DNA of 64,000 nucleotides from an archaeon (GCA_043825775.1 JBDRRK010000008.1:61978-125977); one strand, 5' to 3'. Positions 34,839 through 54,832 are shown, numbered from the stretch's first letter. Program-made: numbers and translations. The notes: generated by a model not told the origin, from the sequence alone.

Positions 34839-35141
34839 ATGTTTATAAAAGTTAGAGGTGATATTATGAAACATGGTCAATTAAACAATCTGGCTTTTGC
34901 TTGGGTTTTTGCTATTTTTGGTGCTGTTGGTACTTTTGTCATTGGAGTTCTAGGACAACTAGGGATGTATATGGAAGGAGTTGTAGCTAATCAATTTTTA
35001 GAAGTTATGAATATTTCAAATCCATTTTATATCTTTGATTTGAGTACTTGGTATGGAACTTTGTTAGGAACTGTAGAAGCATTTGTGTTTTGGTTTTTGA
35101 TGGGTTATGTATTTGCTTTGTTATATAACAAATTTATTTAG
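34839..35141 (+). CDS. Small membrane protein
   Basis: 100 aa with 3 TM helices. Confidence 0.3.
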   Translation: MFIKVRGDIMKHGQLNNLAFAWVFAIFGAVGTFVIGVLGQLGMYMEGVVANQFLEVMNISNPFYIFDLSTWYGTLLGTVEAFVFWFLMGYVFALLYNKFI

Positions 35142-35852
35142 AAATTCCTCTTCAACAAAATGTAAATCTCCTGGGATGATTAAACATTGAGGATATTTTT
35201 TTATTTCTTTTACATTCTTTGCTTCTGTGTAGATTATAGTTGGTTCTTTTGATCCTAATTGTGCACAGACAATTACTTTTGTATCTTCTGTTAATACATT
35301 CTCTTTTCTTTTGGATTCTATATTTAATAAGAAGTTAATTGCTTCTTTAGCTTCCATGAACTTATCTTCTTTTGGTGCTAAATCTAATAAACATAATGTG
35401 TGTAAAGGTTTATTATTCTTAATTACCTCATAAGGAGCTTCAACATTTTCATTGTGGAATGGAATTGATGTTGTTTTTCCATATTTGTATAGTTCTAATC
35501 CCACAATGCCTACTGCTGTTAAAACTGAAGCATTTCCAATTATATTTACTTCAATGTTTTGTGCTTGTTGTAATAATGATAAATGAGTTGTTGCTGAAAA
35601 AGGATCTCCTATAACTAATAAAGATACATTTTTTTCTTTAGCTTCTGCGATAAGTTCTTCACCAGATTCAACAAAAGCTCTTTCTACTAGCTTGATTTCT
35701 TTGCCATATAATTCTTCTAATTTTTCTTTAGGAACTTGTAGTTTAGAGGTGTAGTTTTCCAAATAAATGGAGTCAGAGTTTTTGACTAGCTCTAGACCTT
35801 TTAGAGTTATATCCTTCTCGTCGTTAAGTCCTATACCAATTATGTTTAGCAT
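35121..35852 (-). CDS. dph5: Diphthine synthase (diphthamide biosynthesis methyltransferase)
   Basis: MLNIIGIGLNDEKDITLKGLELVKNSDSIYLENYTS tetrapyrrole-methylase-fold N-terminus typical of archaeal DphB. 243 aa. Confidence 0.85.
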   Translation of the reverse strand: MLNIIGIGLNDEKDITLKGLELVKNSDSIYLENYTSKLQVPKEKLEELYGKEIKLVERAFVESGEELIAEAKEKNVSLLVIGDPFSATTHLSLLQQAQNIEVNIIGNASVLTAVGIVGLELYKYGKTTSIPFHNENVEAPYEVIKNNKPLHTLCLLDLAPKEDKFMEAKEAINFLLNIESKRKENVLTEDTKVIVCAQLGSKEPTIIYTEAKNVKEIKKYPQCLIIPGDLHFVEEEFLNKFVI

Positions 35853-35928
35853 ATAGTTTTGAGAAAAATAATAGTTTATAAGGGTTTTGTAGTGACTTTG
35901 ACTCCTTTTTATGTGTTTAGTACTATTC

Positions 35929-37047
35929 TTACTTGACGCTACGCTCCGAGTTGTAAAGTTTTAAGTATCTGTTTATTTCTTTAGTTGATATTTCTTTTGA
36001 AAATCTATTTTCAAATTCAGTTAAAATACCTTTTCTAAATTTGTAAGTATCTGCATGCTTTGAATAGGCTAACCAGCCCTCTAAAAAATCATAGATTTTA
36101 TCATACTCAATAACTCCCTTTTTATATTTAATTGTATATAATTTAAATTTGGATTTAAATCTTCTTTTATTTTTCTTTTGAATAATCTTATGATTTGGAA
36201 AAATCTTGAAACCTAAAAAGTCTGTTCCTCCTTGTAATGGAAATATTTTTGTTTTATCTGGATGTAGTTCTATATCTAATTTATTCATTAGAAATGATTC
36301 TATTTTCTCTTTGTAATTTTCTAAGCTTTCTTTTGATTTGTCAAGAATGACGAAATCATCAACATAACGAATGTAGTATTTTACTTTAAGTTTATGTTTT
36401 ACAAAAGAATCCAGTTCATTGAGGTAAAGATTCGCAAAGAATTGGGAGGTTAAGTTGCCAAGAGGCATGCTTTTTTCTGTTCGCCCCCTCCCCCCAATTG
36501 GATTTTGAAGGATAATTTTTATTAACCACAAAACTCTTGAATCTTTGATTTTCTTTTGTATTATTTCAAATAAAATTTTGTGATTAATATTCTCAAAATA
36601 CTTTTTTATATCTGCCTTAAGTACATATGCTTTTGAAATGTTATTATTTGTTACTTTTCTCTTGAAATAATCAAACCTTTCAATTGCTTTTAAAGAACCC
36701 TTGTTAATTTGATTTGCATATGAATCTAAGATAAAACCTTTTTCAAATATTGGGGCTATTATACTGTAGAGTGCGTGATGGATAACTCTATCTCTAAAAA
36801 TAGATTTGCTGATTTTTCTTGTTTTTGGATCTCTTATTATGAAATTTACAAGAGGCTTGGGCCTATAGATATGAAAAATTAATTCTGAATGGAGCAAAGA
36901 GAGATTGTTTTTAAGATTTCTTTTGAATTCAATTACATAGTCCTTTGTTGTCTTATTCTTTCTTGCTCTTTTGAATGCAAGTTTTAGGTTTTGAATACTA
37001 CACAATTCCTGCCATAAATCTCTTGTCATTATGAAATGCCTCAGCAT
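35929..37047 (-). CDS. Diversity-generating retroelement reverse transcriptase (DGR RT)
   Basis: RT motifs ADIKKYFENINH (domain 2), IRYVDDFVIL (YxDD) and the DGR-specific LGNLTSQ ([I/L]GxxxSQ) are present. The six-frame ORF runs to 37182 only because it reads through the template repeat. The likely true start is the ATG at 37047 (MLRHFIMT…), 13 nt downstream of the TR. Confidence 0.85.
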   Translation of the reverse strand: MLRHFIMTRDLWQELCSIQNLKLAFKRARKNKTTKDYVIEFKRNLKNNLSLLHSELIFHIYRPKPLVNFIIRDPKTRKISKSIFRDRVIHHALYSIIAPIFEKGFILDSYANQINKGSLKAIERFDYFKRKVTNNNISKAYVLKADIKKYFENINHKILFEIIQKKIKDSRVLWLIKIILQNPIGGRGRTEKSMPLGNLTSQFFANLYLNELDSFVKHKLKVKYYIRYVDDFVILDKSKESLENYKEKIESFLMNKLDIELHPDKTKIFPLQGGTDFLGFKIFPNHKIIQKKNKRRFKSKFKLYTIKYKKGVIEYDKIYDFLEGWLAYSKHADTYKFRKGILTEFENRFSKEISTKEINRYLKLYNSERSVK

Positions 37048-37060
37048 ATCTTGGACTATT

Positions 37061-37157
37061 CCACGAAGCCAATTGTTAGCATTGTCAACGTTCCTGTCAT
37101 TAGCATTGAAGTTGGAATCGTTGTCAAAGTTGTTCAACCTGCAAAGCCTCGCAACAG
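37061..37157 (-). repeat. DGR template repeat (TR), 97 nt
   Basis: 97-nt imperfect direct repeat of 37499..37595. It retains adenines on the coding (minus) strand and encodes 10 Asn AAY codons (…LCRLNNFDNDSNFNANDRNVDNANNWLRG). Confidence 0.8.
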
Positions 37158-37338
37158 ATAGCTCATTTACTGTATTTTGCACTGCTGTTTCAACCCTATA
37201 ATTCGAAAATTATGTGTCACAGCTGTATTTCATGACAGATTAACTGCCTTAGCAAAAGAGCATGTAGTCCAACACTACTACTCCATAAGAGAAGCAATGC
37301 TGAGACAAAGAAAATAAAAAGATAATAGTTAATAAAAA

Positions 37339-38154
37339 TTATTGTTTTTTTAGCTCTAATAAAATCATTTCTTCCAATCCGGATAGATTCAAATCTTTCA
37401 ATACTAAACTTATCTGTTCTGAAGAATATGTTTCTGATTTAGGCTGTGAAATTTCCTGCGGAGTTTTTTGCGTGTCGCCTACGGCGCTGTTAGGTACCCC
37501 ACGAAGCCAATCGCCAGCATTGTCAACGTCCCTGCCATTCGCAACGAAGTTGGAATCGAAGACAAAGCCGTTCAACCCGCAAAGCCCCGCAACAGCACCA
37601 TCTTCTGGAATTGTATCCATAACATATGTGTGTGTTGAAGTCCAGATTCTTGTTGACCTTTTTCCTGCATCTTTTAACATTTTAAAATTAGCTGCAAGAG
37701 TTTTATCTCTACCAAAAGGGACATGAACTAATTTTTGCTCTTCTGGATTTAAATCAGAAAGTGAAGGATCTGAAATATTCACTTCAAATCTATCATAAGC
37801 ATTATTCGGTTTTATGAACCTCACTTTTGAAAGATCTACTGTTACTATCCCCTGTCCAAGAGCCTTTCTTAACTCTTGTTGTGCAGGGTTATAACTTCCA
37901 GTTGTTCTCAGCTGGGAAATTGCATCATCTAAATTTCTTAGTATTAATGGATATTTTGAAAAAGTCAAACCTTGCCTTGTGTATATAGGATTGTCTCCAG
38001 TTATGTACCATTTGTTTTTCGTAACTGCATTATCCAAACCTACATTGTTAATTTCTCTTCTTCTTGCATTTGTTATTTTCAAAGCTCTGTCCAGACTTTT
38101 GAATTTGTCTGCATTTTGTGCAAACGAACCTTGTATCTCATATGTTTGTGCCAT
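37339..38154 (-). CDS. DGR target (variable) protein with C-terminal variable repeat
   Basis: 271-aa ORF on the same strand as the RT. Its 3' region contains the VR (…LCGLNGFVFDSNFVANGRDVDNAGDWLRG…). The WLRG end and Asn/Asp-rich variable scaffold resemble C-type-lectin/FGE-fold DGR targets. Confidence 0.75.
   Translation of the reverse strand: MAQTYEIQGSFAQNADKFKSLDRALKITNARRREINNVGLDNAVTKNKWYITGDNPIYTRQGLTFSKYPLILRNLDDAISQLRTTGSYNPAQQELRKALGQGIVTVDLSKVRFIKPNNAYDRFEVNISDPSLSDLNPEEQKLVHVPFGRDKTLAANFKMLKDAGKRSTRIWTSTHTYVMDTIPEDGAVAGLCGLNGFVFDSNFVANGRDVDNAGDWLRGVPNSAVGDTQKTPQEISQPKSETYSSEQISLVLKDLNLSGLEEMILLELKKQ
37499..37595 (-). repeat. DGR variable repeat (VR), 97 nt, inside the target gene
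   Basis: 82/97 identical to the TR. Fourteen of the 15 mismatches are at positions that are A in the TR coding strand. The first 13 nt on the plus strand (3' end on the coding strand, GGCTTCGTGG) are identical. Confidence 0.8.
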
Positions 38155-38305
38155 TTTCTTTTATTTGGGGAGATTTTACTCATTTATAAAAGTTTTGTTT
38201 TTGTTACCACTTTAATATTACAACTCTCTCCAAAGGAGAGCTGGTAACAAACACTAATCGAGCATAAAAAAGACTCAAAGGCTACTCTCTCTACCAATCC
38301 AAAAG

Positions 38306-38315
38306 CTATATAAAT
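38306..38315 (+). promoter_or_regulatory. Putative archaeal TATA box upstream of the Pop5–psmA–exosome operon
   Basis: ctatataaat lies about 66 nt upstream of the Pop5 ATG. No TSS data. Confidence 0.25.
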
Positions 38316-38380
38316 GATGATATATTCTTTGCTCGAGTAAAGAGAAAGAGAATAAGAATAACAAATATTCTCGTTTTAAA

Positions 38381-48852: not shown

Positions 48853-49044
48853 ATGAGTCTGACAAAGAAAGAATTGGAAGTATTGGAGTTAAAGAAAAAA
48901 GGGTTTACTCAGATTCAAATAGCTAAGAAGCTGAATATTTCACAGCCAGCTGTTTCTTCATTTTATAGAAATGCAATGTTGAAGATTAAGGATAGTTATG
49001 AAACTGTAAAGCTAGCAAAAAAACTTAGGATAAAAGATGAATAG
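48853..49044 (+). CDS. Tfx-like / sigma70-region-4-type HTH DNA-binding protein
   Basis: LTKKELEVLELKKKGFTQIQIAKKLNISQPAVSSF is a LuxR/Tfx-type HTH. Overlaps the start of the giant ORF by 8 nt. Confidence 0.5.
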   Translation: MSLTKKELEVLELKKKGFTQIQIAKKLNISQPAVSSFYRNAMLKIKDSYETVKLAKKLRIKDE

Positions 49045-52000
49045 GGAACTAATGAAATACATGATTGTATTGATTTTGGTAGTTGGAGGCGTATTAGTTT
49101 TCTTTGGAGACTTTACGGGTTATACTTTCATTGAGCCAAATACTATTGAGTTTGATATTAATAATTCTTGGAATCTTTCAAATGGGTTTACAAGAGTTAG
49201 TCAGGGAATAGATATATTTGATAATGATATTATTATTGTAGAAAATAAATCAGTTGTTGATTTAACTAGTTATAATTTAACTAATGGAACTATTTATGTT
49301 GATTTAGTTATTGATGAAATGGTTGTTGATAGTGAGATAGTTAATTATGGTTCTAATGAGACTACACCTCCCAAAATTGTTGAAGAACCAGTGAATGAAA
49401 CCATTGTTGATACTGAACCAGTGAATGAAACAATTCCTGAAGAACCTTTAATTATTCTTGATGAGATAATAGAAACTCTAGATGGAACTAATGCTCCAAC
49501 ACATACACAGCCTCTGTTGAATGCTTCAAGTAATAATAATTTAACAACTGATAACTTAACAGTATATAACCAATCAACTGCTGATTTGGATGGTGATTCT
49601 GTTAAAAATATTTACAACTGGTATATGAATGGAAGTTCAATTACTGTTTTGAACATGCCTTTTGAAGGAGGTTCTTTGAATGGAAGTGGTGTTGCTGATG
49701 GTGCAAAGGATTATTCTGGATATAATAATAATGGTACAATCAATGGACCTGTTTGGTTAAGAGATGGAGGCTATGATGGATTTGGAGCTTACAAGTTTAA
49801 TGGAATTGATGAAGAGATAGATATTCCTTATGATAGTTCTTTTGATTTCAATAAAACTGGGGAGTTTACAGTTATGGCTTGGATTAAAACTGATACTTTA
49901 GTTAATGATAATGGAGATATTGTAAATCATTATATTATTACTAATAATAATCGTTCTTGGTCTCTACAGATTAGAACTAATGTTGCTAGATTTGTTGCTT
50001 GTGAAAATGGTTCTCTAGTAAGTTGTCAATATGCTACTGGAACAACCAGTATTGGTAGTAATAGCCCTTGGATTCATCTTACAGGAAAATGGGATGGAAG
50101 TAATATTTATGTTTATGTTAATGGGGAAAGTGATGATGCTACTCCTCCGGCTTTAACCTCATTGTATCCTATTGATTCTAGTAGATCTTTAGAAATTGGT
50201 TTTGATAGAGTTTCTGATGATTTTAATGGAAGTATTGATCAAGTTATGATTTTTAATAGAAGTTTATCTGATGAACAGATTAGATTAATGTATCAAAATA
50301 GAACAGATATGATACATTCAGCTGAAACTAAATTGAATGAAAATTGGACTTCAATTATTACTCCAAATGATGGTTGGGTTGATGGTACTTCTCTAATAAG
50401 TAATTCATTAGTTATAACTGGTGCGGCTAATAATGTTCCAAGGGTATCTAGTATTTTGTTGAACTCTACTTCAAGTAGGAATAATACAAATGGTTCATTG
50501 CAAGTATCATGGGTTTTCTCAGATGATGATGGTGGAGATTCTGAAATGGATAATGAAACTCAATGGTATCAAAGAATGACTAATGGAAGTGTTATTAAAA
50601 ATACTACATTTACTAATCTTACATTTATTAGTGCTGGAAATCTGACTCCAACAGAGACTTTGAATTTCTCAGTAAGAGTTTATGATGGAACAGACTGGAG
50701 TGCATGGAGTTCCAATGCTAGTATTTATATTACAAAGTATAATAATTTATCAAATGTATCCTTAGGGATATATCCTAGTCCATTAAATATAAATCAGAAT
50801 ATATATGGATATTGTAATTTTACTGATATTGATGGGGATTATGAAGGCTTAGGAAAATATAGATGGTGGAAAAATGGAACTACACTACTTGAAGAAAGAG
50901 ATCTTTCACAATTATTTTTGATGCACTTTGATTTAGAAGGTTCTGCTTATAACAATACAGTGGATAATGAAAGTGCTGTAAATGTTACTGGACTGACTAA
51001 CTTTGTTGGAAAATATGATAGAGATGCATTTGTAACTACAGGAGATAGACTTCAGTTTAGAAGTGCTGGAAATATAAACAAAAGTTCTGGAACCATATTG
51101 TTCTGGCTACAACCTAATTGGAATGATACTGATGAGATTAATGAAAGGCCATTTATAGAAGATTCTAATGGTGATTTTTATATTTACTTTGAACCAGTTT
51201 CAGATCAAATAAAAGTTAATATTACTGTTAATACTACTTATATATTAACAACAAACACAAGTGCATTGAGTGGAGTATTGAATGATAATGAATGGATACA
51301 TGTTGCTATAATGTGGAATTTGAGTACTGATTTAGTTCAGGTTTATTTGAATAATACATTATATGCTAATAATACTGAAGATGTTGATTGGAATACTTCT
51401 TATCCAAATATTGGAACAAATATTGATATTGGACAGACAAATACTGGATCAAGAAGTATAAACTCTCATTTAGATGAATATGCAATATATGATAAACCAT
51501 TGTTGAGGAAACACCTAAGTGATTTTATTAATAGAAGTTTCCCAATAATGAATAATGAAATTTTCTTAGATAGTATCAATATCCAAGATGGAGATAATAT
51601 TACATTTGAATGTGTTCCTTATGATGACATTGAATATGGATTAGGAATTAATTATACAGTAACCATACCAAGCAATACTATTAGTAACACATATGCAAAT
51701 TTAGCTAAATCTATTATTGCTGGAGATGGTGTTGTAGAGTTTGTTGCAAATTTCAGTTCAAATTATGGAATTGAGGCTATATGGCTTGAAATAAATGAGA
51801 GTGGAACTACAACTGCAACAAATGAAAGAGAATTTGGGTATTTAATTGATGATTTAAGTTACTTTGATTGGGCAAATGATTTCAGAACAAATGAAAGTGA
51901 TGATGTTAATATTGTAGAAACTACATCTGGATATATCTTGTATGCAGGAAATATTTCATATAATTTTACAACACCAAATACAGATTATGTTTATGTACGA

Positions 52001-54832
52001 AGATATATAGACTCTATAAATCTAAGTGATTATTTCCAATTACATTATTATATGAAGGCTGATACTGCAAATGTAGTCCAAACAAGAATAAATGTTTATA
52101 ATACAAGTTCGGATGGAACTATGACTTCTTGTGATTACCCTAATTATCCAAATATAGGTACAACTGGATGGCAAAAAGTAACTTTAAACATTTCCTCTTT
52201 TAATAAAACAGACTGTGATTTAGGGAGTATTAGCTTGATAAAACTTACAGTTAATGATATAACTGATACTGATACTTTTAGTGGCTCCTTTTTAATAGAT
52301 GAAATTTATCTTACCAATGGAAGCAATAAACCTACTGATGGCCAGATTAAATTTAATTATAAACCATTAACTGATTTAAGTTCCAATGAAAATGTTACAT
52401 TGAGAATATTTGCAAGGGATGTTACTGGATATAATACTTCTACTGTTTGGTATAATCTAACTGTTGATGGAGATGTTCCTAACCTCCTTAATTTTACATA
52501 TTCCAATGATTATGGTTATTCATATAATACAATTATCTTAAATGGTACTTTTAATGATACTACAACACCTGATTATTTTTGGTTTGAAGTTGAAATAGAT
52601 GGTGCAAGGCATAATACTAGTTCAAGGCCTATTGGTTATTATCTTGATACTTTTGATGATCCTAATTGGTTGTATGCCTCTGGATTGGTTAAAGGAACAA
52701 ATGTAAGTGTTGAAAGGGTTGAATCAGGATTTATAGATAAGGGTATGAATATTAGTTATAATTACCCTGATTCTGAAGCAACTGATTACTTCTTTTTAGA
52801 ACATAAAATGAACCCAATGGTTGTTGCTGATTATGATGAATTAAAATTCCAAATAAAATCTGATAATTTGAAGTATCACCAAATGAGAATGGATTTATGG
52901 TGCGAAGATGAAAAAGCTCCTGAAGAATATAGAGTTGTAGCAAGACAACATTTAGCAAGAACTACTGATTGGGAAGAGGTTGATTTCAAAGAAGCTGAAT
53001 TCTTTGTTGATTCTCCAACATGTTCAATAAACTCAACTAATATAACCACAATGAAATTACAGTTTGGGGATTATAATAATAGTGATAGTGGGGGGGGTAA
53101 TTTAACTATAGATGAAATGTATTTTATTAAAAGAGATAAACCTATTTCTAATATAGGCCAAGTTCCTTTTATATTTGAATGGGTAAATCATAATGAATCT
53201 GGAAACTTTTCATTTAGGATTTGGTTTAATGATAGTACTGGACATGAAAACAAAAGTAATTGGATAAATATTACTCAAAAAACATTTAGTTCTGCTACAG
53301 GAATTATTGCAGTTGATAATGGCTCAATATTAGATGAAATCTCAAATTGGAAGGATAATACTATACAAACTAATTATACCTCTCCAAGTTATGAAGAAAA
53401 ATTAAAATTTAAGAATATAACTCTTGATTTATTAGATGGAATTAAAAATAATAATATAAATGAAAGTAAATTAAATGATGTTGCAGGACAGTTAGATTCA
53501 TTTGGATATGAACTAGTAAATTATAGTGATAATGTTACAGGATATAATTATTATATTATAAGGGAGAATAGTATAAGTAAGGGTTGGGGTGGCTTTGTCT
53601 TTAATCCTCACACATATTCAAATTTAATTTTAGAATCTCCACATCCAATTTGGGATACAAATTCAAGTATTGTTAGCTCAATTATTTTCACAGAGATGTT
53701 TCCTAAGGCATTAGTTGTTTCTACATCTTATAGATATGCGAATCCAAATGATATTAGTGATGCGGGGCATAGTGAGGATATGCTATTTGCTGCAGTTCAT
53801 GACGCATTGATTGAAAATACAACTGATTCAATTGTTATGCAAATACATGGGTATAGTGCAAGTGGATTGAATGATTCTACTTGGCAAGTTATTATTAGTG
53901 ATGGAGTTGGTTTAGAAAAAACCCAAGAAATGAATGATTTGGTTAATAATCTTTCTAATGCACAATACAAAACCTGTGTTTGGAATTACAATTGTAGTTT
54001 CTATAGTGCTACTAATGAGGCTAGTGCCCATGATACAAAAAGATCAGGTGGACAGTTTATACATGTTGAGTTAAATACATCAATTAGAGTTTATGATAAT
54101 GAAAGAGAAAACATAACTAGGATATTGACTGACTTTAGAGAATGGTTACCTCCTAATGTTACTTTAGTTAGCCCTAGTGATACTGCAACATTTAATACAA
54201 GCAATATTACTTTTGAATGTAATGCTACTGATGCAAAGAATGTTACAAAGATTACTCTTTATATCAATAGTAGTACTGGTTTTGATAGCAATAGTTCAAG
54301 TATAATGAATACAAATATTACAAATGTAAGCTTTGTTGAATATTTACCTGCTGGATCTTATACTTGGAATTGTTTGGGAAGAGATTTAAGTGGTAATGTT
54401 AATTTTGCAAGTAGTAATTTTACATTTACTATAAATGGAAGTGCTGTCACTGAAACTACTACTCCTGAAACAACAACTGGATCTTCAAGCTCTTCAGGTA
54501 CTGAATCAAGAGATATCTCTGAAAATAAAACAGAAAAAGAGGAGTTTATTGAAGAGGAAGAGAAGGAAATTAAAGAAGATGAAAGTATTGTTGAAGAGAT
54601 TATTGAAGAAGAAATTGAGGAAGAGGGAAGAATTTTAGAAAATTATTATTCTCAAATTGGAGCAGGGGTAATTGTAATTTTCCTTATTGTCATTTTATTA
54701 TTTTTAGTTATAATACTAATCAAGAGATTGAAAAATAGAAAGAAATCTGATTCATTACATAGGAAATTAGTTCTTTACTTAAAGAAAAGAAAAAGAAATA
54801 AGAGAAAGGTTAAGAGAAAGATATCTTATTGA
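49037..54832 (+). CDS. Giant N-glycosylation-sequon-rich cell-surface protein with LamG/ConA-like lectin domains, N- and C-terminal TM segments
   Basis: 1931 aa. N-terminal hydrophobic segment (YMIVLILVVGGVLVFFG) and C-terminal TM (GAGVIVIFLIVILLFLVIILI) followed by a K/R-rich tail. Thr/Ser linker and acidic EEE stalk precede it. At least two LamG-like jelly-roll regions (…FTVMAWIKTD…WIHLTGKWDG…VYVNGE… and …GTILFWLQPNW…WIHVAIMWN…VYLNNTLY…). Dozens of N-x-S/T sequons. Confidence 0.7.
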   Translation: MNRELMKYMIVLILVVGGVLVFFGDFTGYTFIEPNTIEFDINNSWNLSNGFTRVSQGIDIFDNDIIIVENKSVVDLTSYNLTNGTIYVDLVIDEMVVDSEIVNYGSNETTPPKIVEEPVNETIVDTEPVNETIPEEPLIILDEIIETLDGTNAPTHTQPLLNASSNNNLTTDNLTVYNQSTADLDGDSVKNIYNWYMNGSSITVLNMPFEGGSLNGSGVADGAKDYSGYNNNGTINGPVWLRDGGYDGFGAYKFNGIDEEIDIPYDSSFDFNKTGEFTVMAWIKTDTLVNDNGDIVNHYIITNNNRSWSLQIRTNVARFVACENGSLVSCQYATGTTSIGSNSPWIHLTGKWDGSNIYVYVNGESDDATPPALTSLYPIDSSRSLEIGFDRVSDDFNGSIDQVMIFNRSLSDEQIRLMYQNRTDMIHSAETKLNENWTSIITPNDGWVDGTSLISNSLVITGAANNVPRVSSILLNSTSSRNNTNGSLQVSWVFSDDDGGDSEMDNETQWYQRMTNGSVIKNTTFTNLTFISAGNLTPTETLNFSVRVYDGTDWSAWSSNASIYITKYNNLSNVSLGIYPSPLNINQNIYGYCNFTDIDGDYEGLGKYRWWKNGTTLLEERDLSQLFLMHFDLEGSAYNNTVDNESAVNVTGLTNFVGKYDRDAFVTTGDRLQFRSAGNINKSSGTILFWLQPNWNDTDEINERPFIEDSNGDFYIYFEPVSDQIKVNITVNTTYILTTNTSALSGVLNDNEWIHVAIMWNLSTDLVQVYLNNTLYANNTEDVDWNTSYPNIGTNIDIGQTNTGSRSINSHLDEYAIYDKPLLRKHLSDFINRSFPIMNNEIFLDSINIQDGDNITFECVPYDDIEYGLGINYTVTIPSNTISNTYANLAKSIIAGDGVVEFVANFSSNYGIEAIWLEINESGTTTATNEREFGYLIDDLSYFDWANDFRTNESDDVNIVETTSGYILYAGNISYNFTTPNTDYVYVRRYIDSINLSDYFQLHYYMKADTANVVQTRINVYNTSSDGTMTSCDYPNYPNIGTTGWQKVTLNISSFNKTDCDLGSISLIKLTVNDITDTDTFSGSFLIDEIYLTNGSNKPTDGQIKFNYKPLTDLSSNENVTLRIFARDVTGYNTSTVWYNLTVDGDVPNLLNFTYSNDYGYSYNTIILNGTFNDTTTPDYFWFEVEIDGARHNTSSRPIGYYLDTFDDPNWLYASGLVKGTNVSVERVESGFIDKGMNISYNYPDSEATDYFFLEHKMNPMVVADYDELKFQIKSDNLKYHQMRMDLWCEDEKAPEEYRVVARQHLARTTDWEEVDFKEAEFFVDSPTCSINSTNITTMKLQFGDYNNSDSGGGNLTIDEMYFIKRDKPISNIGQVPFIFEWVNHNESGNFSFRIWFNDSTGHENKSNWINITQKTFSSATGIIAVDNGSILDEISNWKDNTIQTNYTSPSYEEKLKFKNITLDLLDGIKNNNINESKLNDVAGQLDSFGYELVNYSDNVTGYNYYIIRENSISKGWGGFVFNPHTYSNLILESPHPIWDTNSSIVSSIIFTEMFPKALVVSTSYRYANPNDISDAGHSEDMLFAAVHDALIENTTDSIVMQIHGYSASGLNDSTWQVIISDGVGLEKTQEMNDLVNNLSNAQYKTCVWNYNCSFYSATNEASAHDTKRSGGQFIHVELNTSIRVYDNERENITRILTDFREWLPPNVTLVSPSDTATFNTSNITFECNATDAKNVTKITLYINSSTGFDSNSSSIMNTNITNVSFVEYLPAGSYTWNCLGRDLSGNVNFASSNFTFTINGSAVTETTTPETTTGSSSSSGTESRDISENKTEKEEFIEEEEKEIKEDESIVEEIIEEEIEEEGRILENYYSQIGAGVIVIFLIVILLFLVIILIKRLKNRKKSDSLHRKLVLYLKKRKRNKRKVKRKISY

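Follow-up and report, generated by a model that had tools for sequence, protein, structure and literature searches.

The stretch analysed here, 64,000 nucleotides (nt) of one strand of an archaeal sequence (GCA_043825775.1, JBDRRK010000008.1:61978-125977; hereafter the window), raises the question of what kind of element occupies its positions 35929 to 38154, where a target gene, a short near-repeat and a reverse transcriptase (RT) gene lie together on the minus strand, and of what is held in the 181 nt between the target stop codon and the second copy of the repeat. The locus had been read in a first-pass annotation as an unusually minimal diversity-generating retroelement (DGR). Very probably it is an intact, chromosomally encoded DGR of the Nanoarchaeota/DPANN AvpA type, and as such it is ordinary for its clade, in which the type has already been described. 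What is new is that the supposed spacer is a structured RNA of the Rfam family RT-16, which lies 5′ of the template and, judged by analogy, looks like the Sp RNA of the Bordetella phage BPP-1 DGR. The parts of the cassette, with the variable repeat (VR) and the template repeat (TR) given at their full extent, are as follows.

37339..38154, minus strand: target gene, 271 amino acids (aa), encoding an AvpA-like variable protein with a predicted C-type-lectin fold
37495..37595, minus strand: VR (97-nt core 37499-37595, homology continuing to 37495)
37153..37306, minus strand: RT-16 structured RNA (Rfam RF03019 match at 37153-37303 plus three more bases of the 5′ arm of a closing helix)
37057..37157, minus strand: TR, 101 nt (97-nt core 37061-37157)
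35929..37029, minus strand: DGR reverse transcriptase, 366 aa, counted from ATG 37029

The 271-aa open reading frame (ORF), the VR, the 181-nt gap, the TR and the RT were all found where the first-pass annotation had placed them, and the peptides LGNLTSQ, IRYVDDFVIL and ADIKKYFENINH, together with the peptides it had given for TR and VR, are present in the translations. Two of its descriptions stood in part. The RT ORF is there and ends at 35929, but the listed 417-aa form, which is also the public annotation (35929-37182, minus strand, GTG 37182 start), runs through the TR and translates it as an Asn-rich N-terminal extension; this call was rejected because the N-terminal 51 codons are the TR read in frame and the frame is not kept in homologues, and translation more probably begins, as it does in homologues, at ATG 37029 (366 aa, MTRDLWQ...). 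The length of the 'spacer' was right, but the segment is not featureless, being the conserved RT-16 RNA; no ORF was found between target and RT. In L002 (related loci carry L numbers) a separate 55-aa ORF stands where the 417-aa annotation of the window reads through the TR, and many homologues listed at 390-440 aa probably share the same readthrough artefact.

Template, variable repeat and target protein

The 97-nt direct repeat (37061-37157 against 37499-37595) is 85% identical. On the minus strand the two copies differ at 15 positions, 14 of them TR adenines (10 A to G, 4 A to T), a bias with a binomial probability (at least 14 of 15 mismatches on A) of 1.9e-7; 14 of the 27 adenines in the 97 nt are substituted, and the lone difference at another base, T to G, is synonymous (GCT to GCG). 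The homology extends 4 nt further (AATA in TR, GGTA in VR), giving 101 nt with 16 of 17 mismatches at A, and when 11 TR/VR pairs were pooled from the window and 10 related archaeal loci, 141 of 151 mismatches fell at A. Near-repeats whose differences lie nearly all on template adenines are the mark of a DGR. The TR had been described as Asn-rich with AAY codons, which was borne out on counting: its 101 nt contain 30 adenines, 10 AAY codons and 18 variable codons, mutation can turn none of its codons into a stop, and the number of possible protein variants is about 2e16. The two ends of the repeat recur nowhere else in the 64-kb window, where shuffles lead to an expectation of 0 matches, and the VR is therefore single. 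A seed-10 repeat search overlooked heavily diversified VRs, and another repeat search was used instead.

Two side observations concern the repeats of relatives. L009 has two VRs (49-115 and 2151-2217, in two target genes about 2.1 kb apart) with one TR (2559-2625), and both VRs differ from this TR at adenines only (11 and 13 mismatches). In the alignment of relatives, RNAalifold returned a 5-base-pair (bp) helix joining the 5′ and 3′ ends of the TR (GCGAG/UUCGU; A2 columns 302-306/410-414, corresponding to about 37154-37150/37068-37064 on the minus strand of the window), which covaries from A-U to C-G through synonymous codon changes.

The 3′ end of the VR resembles a site where mutagenic homing is initiated (IMH) and is followed by a hairpin:

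37494..37503, minus strand: IMH-like VR 3′ end (CGTGGGGTAC; TR counterpart CGTGGAATAG)
37476..37486, minus strand: GC-rich hairpin with a trinucleotide loop (CGCC-GTA-GGCG), inside the target ORF, 8 nt past the IMH

The IMH and its TR counterpart (IMH*) read TGGGGT and TGGAAT, the same pair as published for the DUSEL4 Nanoarchaeota DGRs (PMC4372165), and the change from AA in TR to GG in VR at this site recurs in 11 of 11 TR/VR pairs. In relatives the hairpin occupies the same place, with stems of 5-7 bp and GAA, GTA, GCA or AGA loops, and its stems covary (CGCC/GGCG, CGGC/GCCG, GCCC/GGGC). The IMH pair and GC hairpin expected of a DGR were thus recognised by sequence and are conserved in 10 relatives; a GC hairpin within the ORF after the VR has already been described for nanoarchaeal DGRs (PMC4372165, PMC5006420).

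The VR comprises codons 187-220 of 271 and so lies in the 3′ part of the target gene, as in other DGRs. No meaningful match to the target was obtained in Pfam, NCBIfam, PHROGs or a profile search of Protein Data Bank (PDB) sequences. A word-indexed protein search gave 1 relative and an exhaustive HMMER search 167, of which 64 were used for a structure model with a pLDDT of 90.2. By this model the target has the C-type-lectin fold usual for DGR targets and belongs to the AvpA subclass, as a different sequence family within the same fold subclass: the likeness to AvpA was found by fold comparison alone, with 12% identity over the structural alignment, and AvpA was not recovered by the target sequence profile. 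In the predicted structure, as in AvpA, the final strands of the fold are supplied by the VR (residues 187-220), after which comes a C-terminal extension of about 50 aa consisting of a disordered linker and two helices.

The cassette was compared with the DUSEL4 and AvpA DGRs of Nanoarchaeota (Paul et al. 2015, PMC4372165; Handa et al. 2016, PMC5006420, PDB 5IOO). It shares with them the order target-VR/TR/RT, the short TR, the TGGGGT/TGGAAT pair, a DPANN host, the triloop hairpin in the ORF and an internal VR followed by a hairpin-bearing extension (about 46-50 aa, predicted as two helices in each), in addition to the AvpA-subclass fold; it differs in its hairpin loop, GTA as against the published GRA. 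Published descriptions already show short TRs and orphan targets lacking recognisable domains in DGRs of the nanoarchaeal clade, and they agree with the first-pass statement that DGRs are known from DPANN-type archaea. Its reading of the locus as a DGR also stands, given the adenine-specific mismatches, an RT like that of the Bordetella phage (bRT), a stop-proof AAY template and a target with a predicted C-type-lectin fold. The unusual minimality that it saw does not: the RT has more than 7,500 relatives, the short TR and the other features called unusual are the norm of the clade, and the 'spacer' is a structured RNA, so the cassette is one more case of a known class.

The RT-16 RNA and its three helices

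Against the Rfam RT-16 model (RF03019) the 181-nt region scored 73.3 bits, above the gathering score of 50, and the full model (1-158) was matched at 37303-37153. In each of the 8 archaeal loci that gave an Rfam hit and in which a TR was detected as well, the RNA ends at, or no more than 15 nt inside, the reported start of the TR, and an nhmmer profile adds L008, so that RT-16 stands at the 5′ edge of the TR in 9 of 9 archaeal relatives in which both were found. RT-16 was described as an orphan motif near RT genes, among RT motifs many of which were guessed to be retron RNAs and of which RT-10 alone was linked to DGRs (Weinberg et al. 2017, PMC5737381); here, in contrast, it is tied to DGRs. 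No report of such a link was found in the literature searched, and the excerpts of PMC4372165 and PMC5006420 contain no discussion of a role for the region upstream of the TR. In the published survey of RNA elements of DGRs, for the most part DGRs that contain Avd, together with five archaeal genomes, the sequence covered reached from 40 nt upstream to 100 nt downstream of the TR; it would not have revealed the arrangement seen here.

Three helices were proposed from inspection of nine loci and tested on an unfitted MAFFT alignment of 20 distinct loci, to which the pairing figures below refer. Their strands, with a candidate promoter element, are listed in the order of the transcript.

37329..37338, minus strand: candidate archaeal TATA box (TTTTTATTAA) for a TR-RT transcript, some 28 nt before the closing helix begins
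37297..37306, minus strand: helix A, 5′ arm (GUCUCAGCAU), pairing with 37038-37047
37265..37272, minus strand: strand of helix B contributed by RT-16 (UUGGACUA); candidate primer strand, in which A37265 is the candidate priming nucleotide
37252..37261, minus strand: helix C, 5′ strand (GCUCUUUUGC), 3 nt past the candidate primer strand
37161..37170, minus strand: helix C, 3′ strand (GUAAAUGAGC), with 3 nt left between its end and the TR; candidate counterpart of the 'cPRT Stop' duplex of BPP-1
37051..37058, minus strand: helix B, template-side strand (UAGUCCAA), starting at the UA that ends the TR/VR homology, right after the GGAA of IMH*
37038..37047, minus strand: helix A, 3′ arm (AUGCUGAGGC), completing a 10-bp helix that encloses RT-16 and TR

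In helix A 81.6% of alignment cells are paired and 5 of 9 pairs show compensatory changes. The arms of relatives consist of wholly different sequences that still pair (GUCUUGGCA/UGCCAGGAU, AGCCUUGCG/CGCAAGGCU, CCCUAGAGAGC/GUUCUCUAGGG and ACCUAGAG/CUCUAGGU), and cognate arms pair better than non-cognate ones (permutation p<2e-4, weighted score). Longest-run complementarity was uninformative for this helix, AT-rich sequence with G·U allowed giving chance runs of 6-8 nt, and for the same reason RNAduplex shuffle z-scores on long windows were weak. Helix B has 88% of cells paired and 3 of 8 pairs compensatory; its RT-16 strand lies within an invariant GG.CUACA.GC box (UUGGRCUA unvarying across the 20 loci), its distal pairs covary, and its cognate arms again pair better than non-cognate ones (permutation p<1e-4). 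Helix C, the outer helix of the Rfam model, has 89-95% of cells paired, with compensatory changes in 7 of 10 pairs.

Taken together, the three helices have 86.5% of cells paired, compared with 32-48% when the partners were slid by 1-3 columns, and 16 of 28 pairs are compensatory, compared with 9.7±1.7 in shuffles (0 of 500 shuffles reached the observed value). All three are present in both the minimum-free-energy and the centroid structure when the 275-nt unit is folded unconstrained (z = -2.5), and RNAalifold independently recovered two of them, B and C, as well as both the short stem-loop and the long stem. The TATA-like box is a putative promoter of the TR-RT transcript, a reading suggested by its sequence and position; TTTATTAA is kept at the same distance in L001, L002, L004, L010 and L011, with variants in L005 and L006.

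Some observations concern the RNA family itself. Among the Rfam motifs RT-10, RT-11, RT-14 and RT-16, the RNA of the window scores as RT-16 and weakly as RT-11 (sub-threshold match of 40.7 bits, 37180-37299, minus strand). RT-11 and RT-16 share UGGACUACACGC, AUAAAA and UGAAGCGGCAGUG blocks and look homologous, and Rfam lists both with no clan; sarcin-ricin-type loops have been reported in RT-10, RT-14 and RT-16. Other RT-16-like arrangements were seen in L030 and L031 (1598-1722, minus strand), where the RNA lies some 1.3 kb upstream of the RT and on the other strand, in L039 and L040, with about 650 nt between hit and RT, and in L063, which has two hits.

A possible permuted priming RNA

The DGR of BPP-1 (PDB 8UB7) resembles the cassette in that the two RTs are homologous (E 2e-42) and have the LTSQ motif in common, TR and VR differ specifically at adenines, the target has a C-type-lectin fold (predicted for the cassette), and there are an IMH/IMH* pair and, past the VR, a hairpin. 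It differs in that its TR is 134 nt long as against 101, in being borne by a phage rather than a cellular chromosome, in having an avd gene, of which none is detectable here, and in a VR that is not set off from the C terminus as that of the window is. Its Sp RNA lies downstream of the TR and consists, in order, of a stem-loop, a primer strand that ends at A56 and pairs with the 3′ end of the TR, 2 nt, a strand pairing just upstream of the TR ('cPRT Stop', the avd:Sp duplex), a short stem-loop, A80/A81 with A-minor contacts, a single-stranded ring and a long stem with internal loops (Handa et al., bioRxiv 10.1101/2023.10.23.563531). That placement is not found here: only about 25-30 nt separate the TR from the RT start, and the structured RNA is 5′ of the TR in 9 of 9 archaeal relatives. 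RT-16 nevertheless holds counterparts of the Sp elements in the same order: the P1 stem-loop, UUGGACUA ending at A37265, CAU, the helix C strand, a short stem-loop (37248-37234), a conserved A-rich AUGAAAUACA and a long interrupted stem. Beyond these it runs on into the partner strand of helix C and then the TR. Helices C and B thereby place a duplex by the 5′ end of the TR and a duplex at its 3′ end 3 nt apart on the strand that bears the candidate primer, and both covary.

On this basis the DGR RNA of a large archaeal clade may be a circular permutation of the Bordetella phage RNA. The transcript would start about 28 nt past the TATA-like box, at the 5′ arm of the closing helix, and RT-16, upstream of the TR, would take the role that Sp has downstream of it, as a module for priming, stopping and RT binding. 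The UUGGACUA box and the 3′ flank of the TR would form the template:primer duplex, with priming from the CUA|CA box at A37265, a role suggested by its likeness to A56 of Sp, and the strand 3 nt further on would form the stop duplex with the sequence just 5′ of the TR. The 10-bp helix A (37306-37297/37047-37038) would close the unit, tying RT-16 to the 3′ end of the TR in place of the covalent TR-Sp link of BPP-1, and the RNA would be turned on and off by an extended P1 hairpin in which both closing arm and primer strand are hidden. By established DGR biology, the TR would then be transcribed and reverse-transcribed with misincorporation opposite adenines, and the cDNA would replace the VR, rewriting up to 18 codons of the ligand-binding face of the target. 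The first-pass annotation reported that avd is missing, and none of the 13 small ORFs scanned in the window matched an Avd-family Pfam model (E≤0.01), several of them having no Pfam match of any kind; with no Avd match nearby, RT-16 and the RT may suffice without Avd. Taken with all its parts, Avd-free priming and P1 switch included, we hold this proposal to be evenly poised between right and wrong.

Several observations weigh against it, or against the intact DGR on which it builds. The priming role of RT-16 is argued from pairing, covariation and analogy. Helix B is interrupted in most relatives by an A×C or C×A mismatch, which lies 3-4 bp away from the end at which priming is proposed. In the lower part of the Rfam P1 hairpin, the primer strand is instead the partner of the 5′ arm of helix A, a conserved fold that is mutually exclusive with helices A and B; either fold may form, the RNA may switch between them, or the extended hairpin may be the sole real fold of that segment. 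Helix A was not returned by RNAalifold on the MAFFT alignment, because its divergent arms are out of register there. The two template adenines beside the proposed primer are GG in every VR, which fits non-transfer of the IMH region and does not prove it. An Avd-like protein that has diverged beyond a Pfam signal, or an Avd encoded elsewhere in the genome, is possible, and the only second assembly of the locus, the Logan contig L003 from run SRR26275510, encodes an identical target protein.

It is possible, if rather doubtful, that the DGR is real and RT-16 is a mere leader, an RT-binding scaffold or a translational control element, with priming elsewhere: in the RT mRNA downstream of the TR as in BPP-1, from a primer in trans or from target DNA. 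The 3′ arm of helix A lies upstream of the RT start codon, 8 nt from it, and shares bases with an in-frame ATG that precedes this codon, so helix A could control translation of the RT, and the Rfam consensus fold and the recurrent helix B mismatch just described both speak for priming elsewhere. On the other hand, with about 25-30 nt between TR and RT start a downstream Sp-like RNA would have to sit in coding sequence; the box that pairs with the 3′ flank of the TR is unvarying in 20 loci while its distal pairs covary, and the spacing of primer strand, 3-nt linker and stop strand, as well as the order of what follows, matches that of Sp.

Two further points speak for the permutation: the sarcin-ricin-type loops common to RT-10, RT-14 and RT-16, and the bacterial (Clostridia) relatives, whose RTs are about 40% identical and in which the equivalent RNA, RT-14, lies directly 3′ of the TR. 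Situated downstream of the RT gene, RT-14 starts where the TR has its 3′ edge (L014:2332-2606, L015:2333-2567, also L013 and L017-L019), and in L014 a sequence immediately preceding the TR, AGGGAUAAAUC, has its complement in GAUUUAUUCCU of RT-14, after which a short stem-loop and an A-run follow. RT-14, which Weinberg et al. (PMC5737381) did not link to DGRs, likewise has the look of an RNA that flanks a DGR template, here on the canonical (Sp) side.

Activity, genomic setting and reverse transcriptase

That the DGR is decayed or frozen, its TR/VR differences being historical, is unlikely. Such a state would agree with the identity of the target protein in both assemblies of the locus, with the one mismatch outside adenines and with a VR hairpin stem of 4 bp as against 5-7 bp in relatives. 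The RT ORF, however, is intact, with YVDD and all motifs aligning to bRT; the TR retains its AAY codons with no stops possible; the IMH/IMH* pair, RT-16 and the three helices are likewise intact, and the lone change outside adenines is synonymous.

The cassette lies between genes of a conserved backbone. On one side are a TP_methylase protein (35121-35852, minus strand; the 'diphthine synthase' of the first-pass annotation), threonyl-tRNA synthetase and a DUF167 protein; on the other, from 38381 onward, the Pop5, proteasome alpha, SBDS, Rrp4 and two RNase PH genes (its Pop5–proteasome–exosome superoperon), and also DNA ligase. A relative with an 84%-identical proteasome subunit has exactly the same backbone, with two unrelated ORFs on the other strand in the slot between TP_methylase and Pop5 (246 aa and 245 aa, L104:3941-5423; 257 aa in L105, GCA_018652905.1), which corresponds to 35853-38380 of the window. 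The ORFs in the slot of this relative gave no Pfam match, and the idea that they are AvpA-like proteins was rejected on comparison. The housekeeping flanks and this relative with other genes in the slot show that the cassette is chromosomal, as had been proposed, and accessory, in a variable slot of a conserved backbone. The proteasome alpha protein of the window has its affiliation with Woesearchaeota/Nanoarchaeota, like the top RT homologues. Elsewhere in the window, a probable large surface protein of 1,931 aa, in which Laminin_G_3, Big_7 and Ig-like domains occur, is encoded at 49037-54832 on the plus strand, and the syntenic relative has a Laminin_G/fibrinogen protein of more than 1,450 aa nearby.

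Carriage by an integrated virus or other mobile element is accordingly very improbable. It would account for the three closest cassettes (window, L001 and L002) lying in three different neighbourhoods and for the other genes in the slot of the syntenic relative, and there are two matches, no more, to the RT-16 core pattern in 2.9 million viral contigs (IMG/VR), namely L107:9401-9461 and L108:2042-2098, which may be real archaeal viruses or misclassified DPANN contigs. The flanking genes scanned are nevertheless all housekeeping genes, none bearing a signature of a virus or an integrase; tRNA genes, at which integration is commonest, were looked for in the window and none was found; the insert holds only two genes and an RNA; and the same search patterns returned one distant (35%) RT relative in the viral contigs, compared with 83 in metagenome contigs.

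The RT matched Pfam RVT_1 (7.6e-21) and PHROG 1423 (4e-113). Its homologues at E<1e-10 number more than 7,500; identity is 60-78% for the top ones, which come, where named, from metagenome-assembled genomes of Woesearchaeota/Nanoarchaeota. Its best solved-structure match was 8ub7_A (a 328-aa 'Reverse transcriptase', E 2.3e-42), identified as bRT by the preprint on that complex (bioRxiv 10.1101/2023.10.23.563531), followed by the best group II RT structure (E 2.4e-26) and a retron RT structure (E 4e-6). The LGNLTSQ motif, claimed as diagnostic of DGRs, aligns with IGSLTSQ of bRT (PLGNLTSQFFANLY against PIGSLTSQLFANVY) and has the [I/L/V]GxxxSQ form of the DGR clade. That the RT is instead that of a group II intron or retron and the repeat an ordinary duplication is hardly conceivable: although the NCBIfam group II RT/maturase model TIGR04416 matched with E 2e-50 and a few sources label homologues 'retron-type' or 'maturase', its score was 171.6 bits against a cut-off of 300 and that of the retron St85 model 65 bits against 235, among solved relatives bRT leads by 16 orders of magnitude in E-value, an Rfam scan found no group II intron or retron RNA family anywhere in the window, the RNA beside the RT is contiguous with a TR that has a VR partner, an arrangement other than retron msr/msd, and the mismatches are adenine-specific. 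Group II intron, retron and prophage readings were thus rejected on the sub-cut-off models, the adenine-specific mismatches and the housekeeping flanks.

As a cassette, the locus adds one example and leaves the known picture of DPANN DGRs unchanged. Through its RNA, the orphan motif RT-16 and, by the same logic, RT-14 would gain a function, as DGR template-flanking RNAs and not retron RNAs. One RT with a self-contained RNA of about 275 nt may work without Avd, as a minimal unit of interest for DGR-based targeted mutagenesis, and the archaeal arrangement would amount to a natural permutation experiment, pointing to which features of the Bordetella ribonucleoprotein are essential (geometry) and which are incidental (connectivity).

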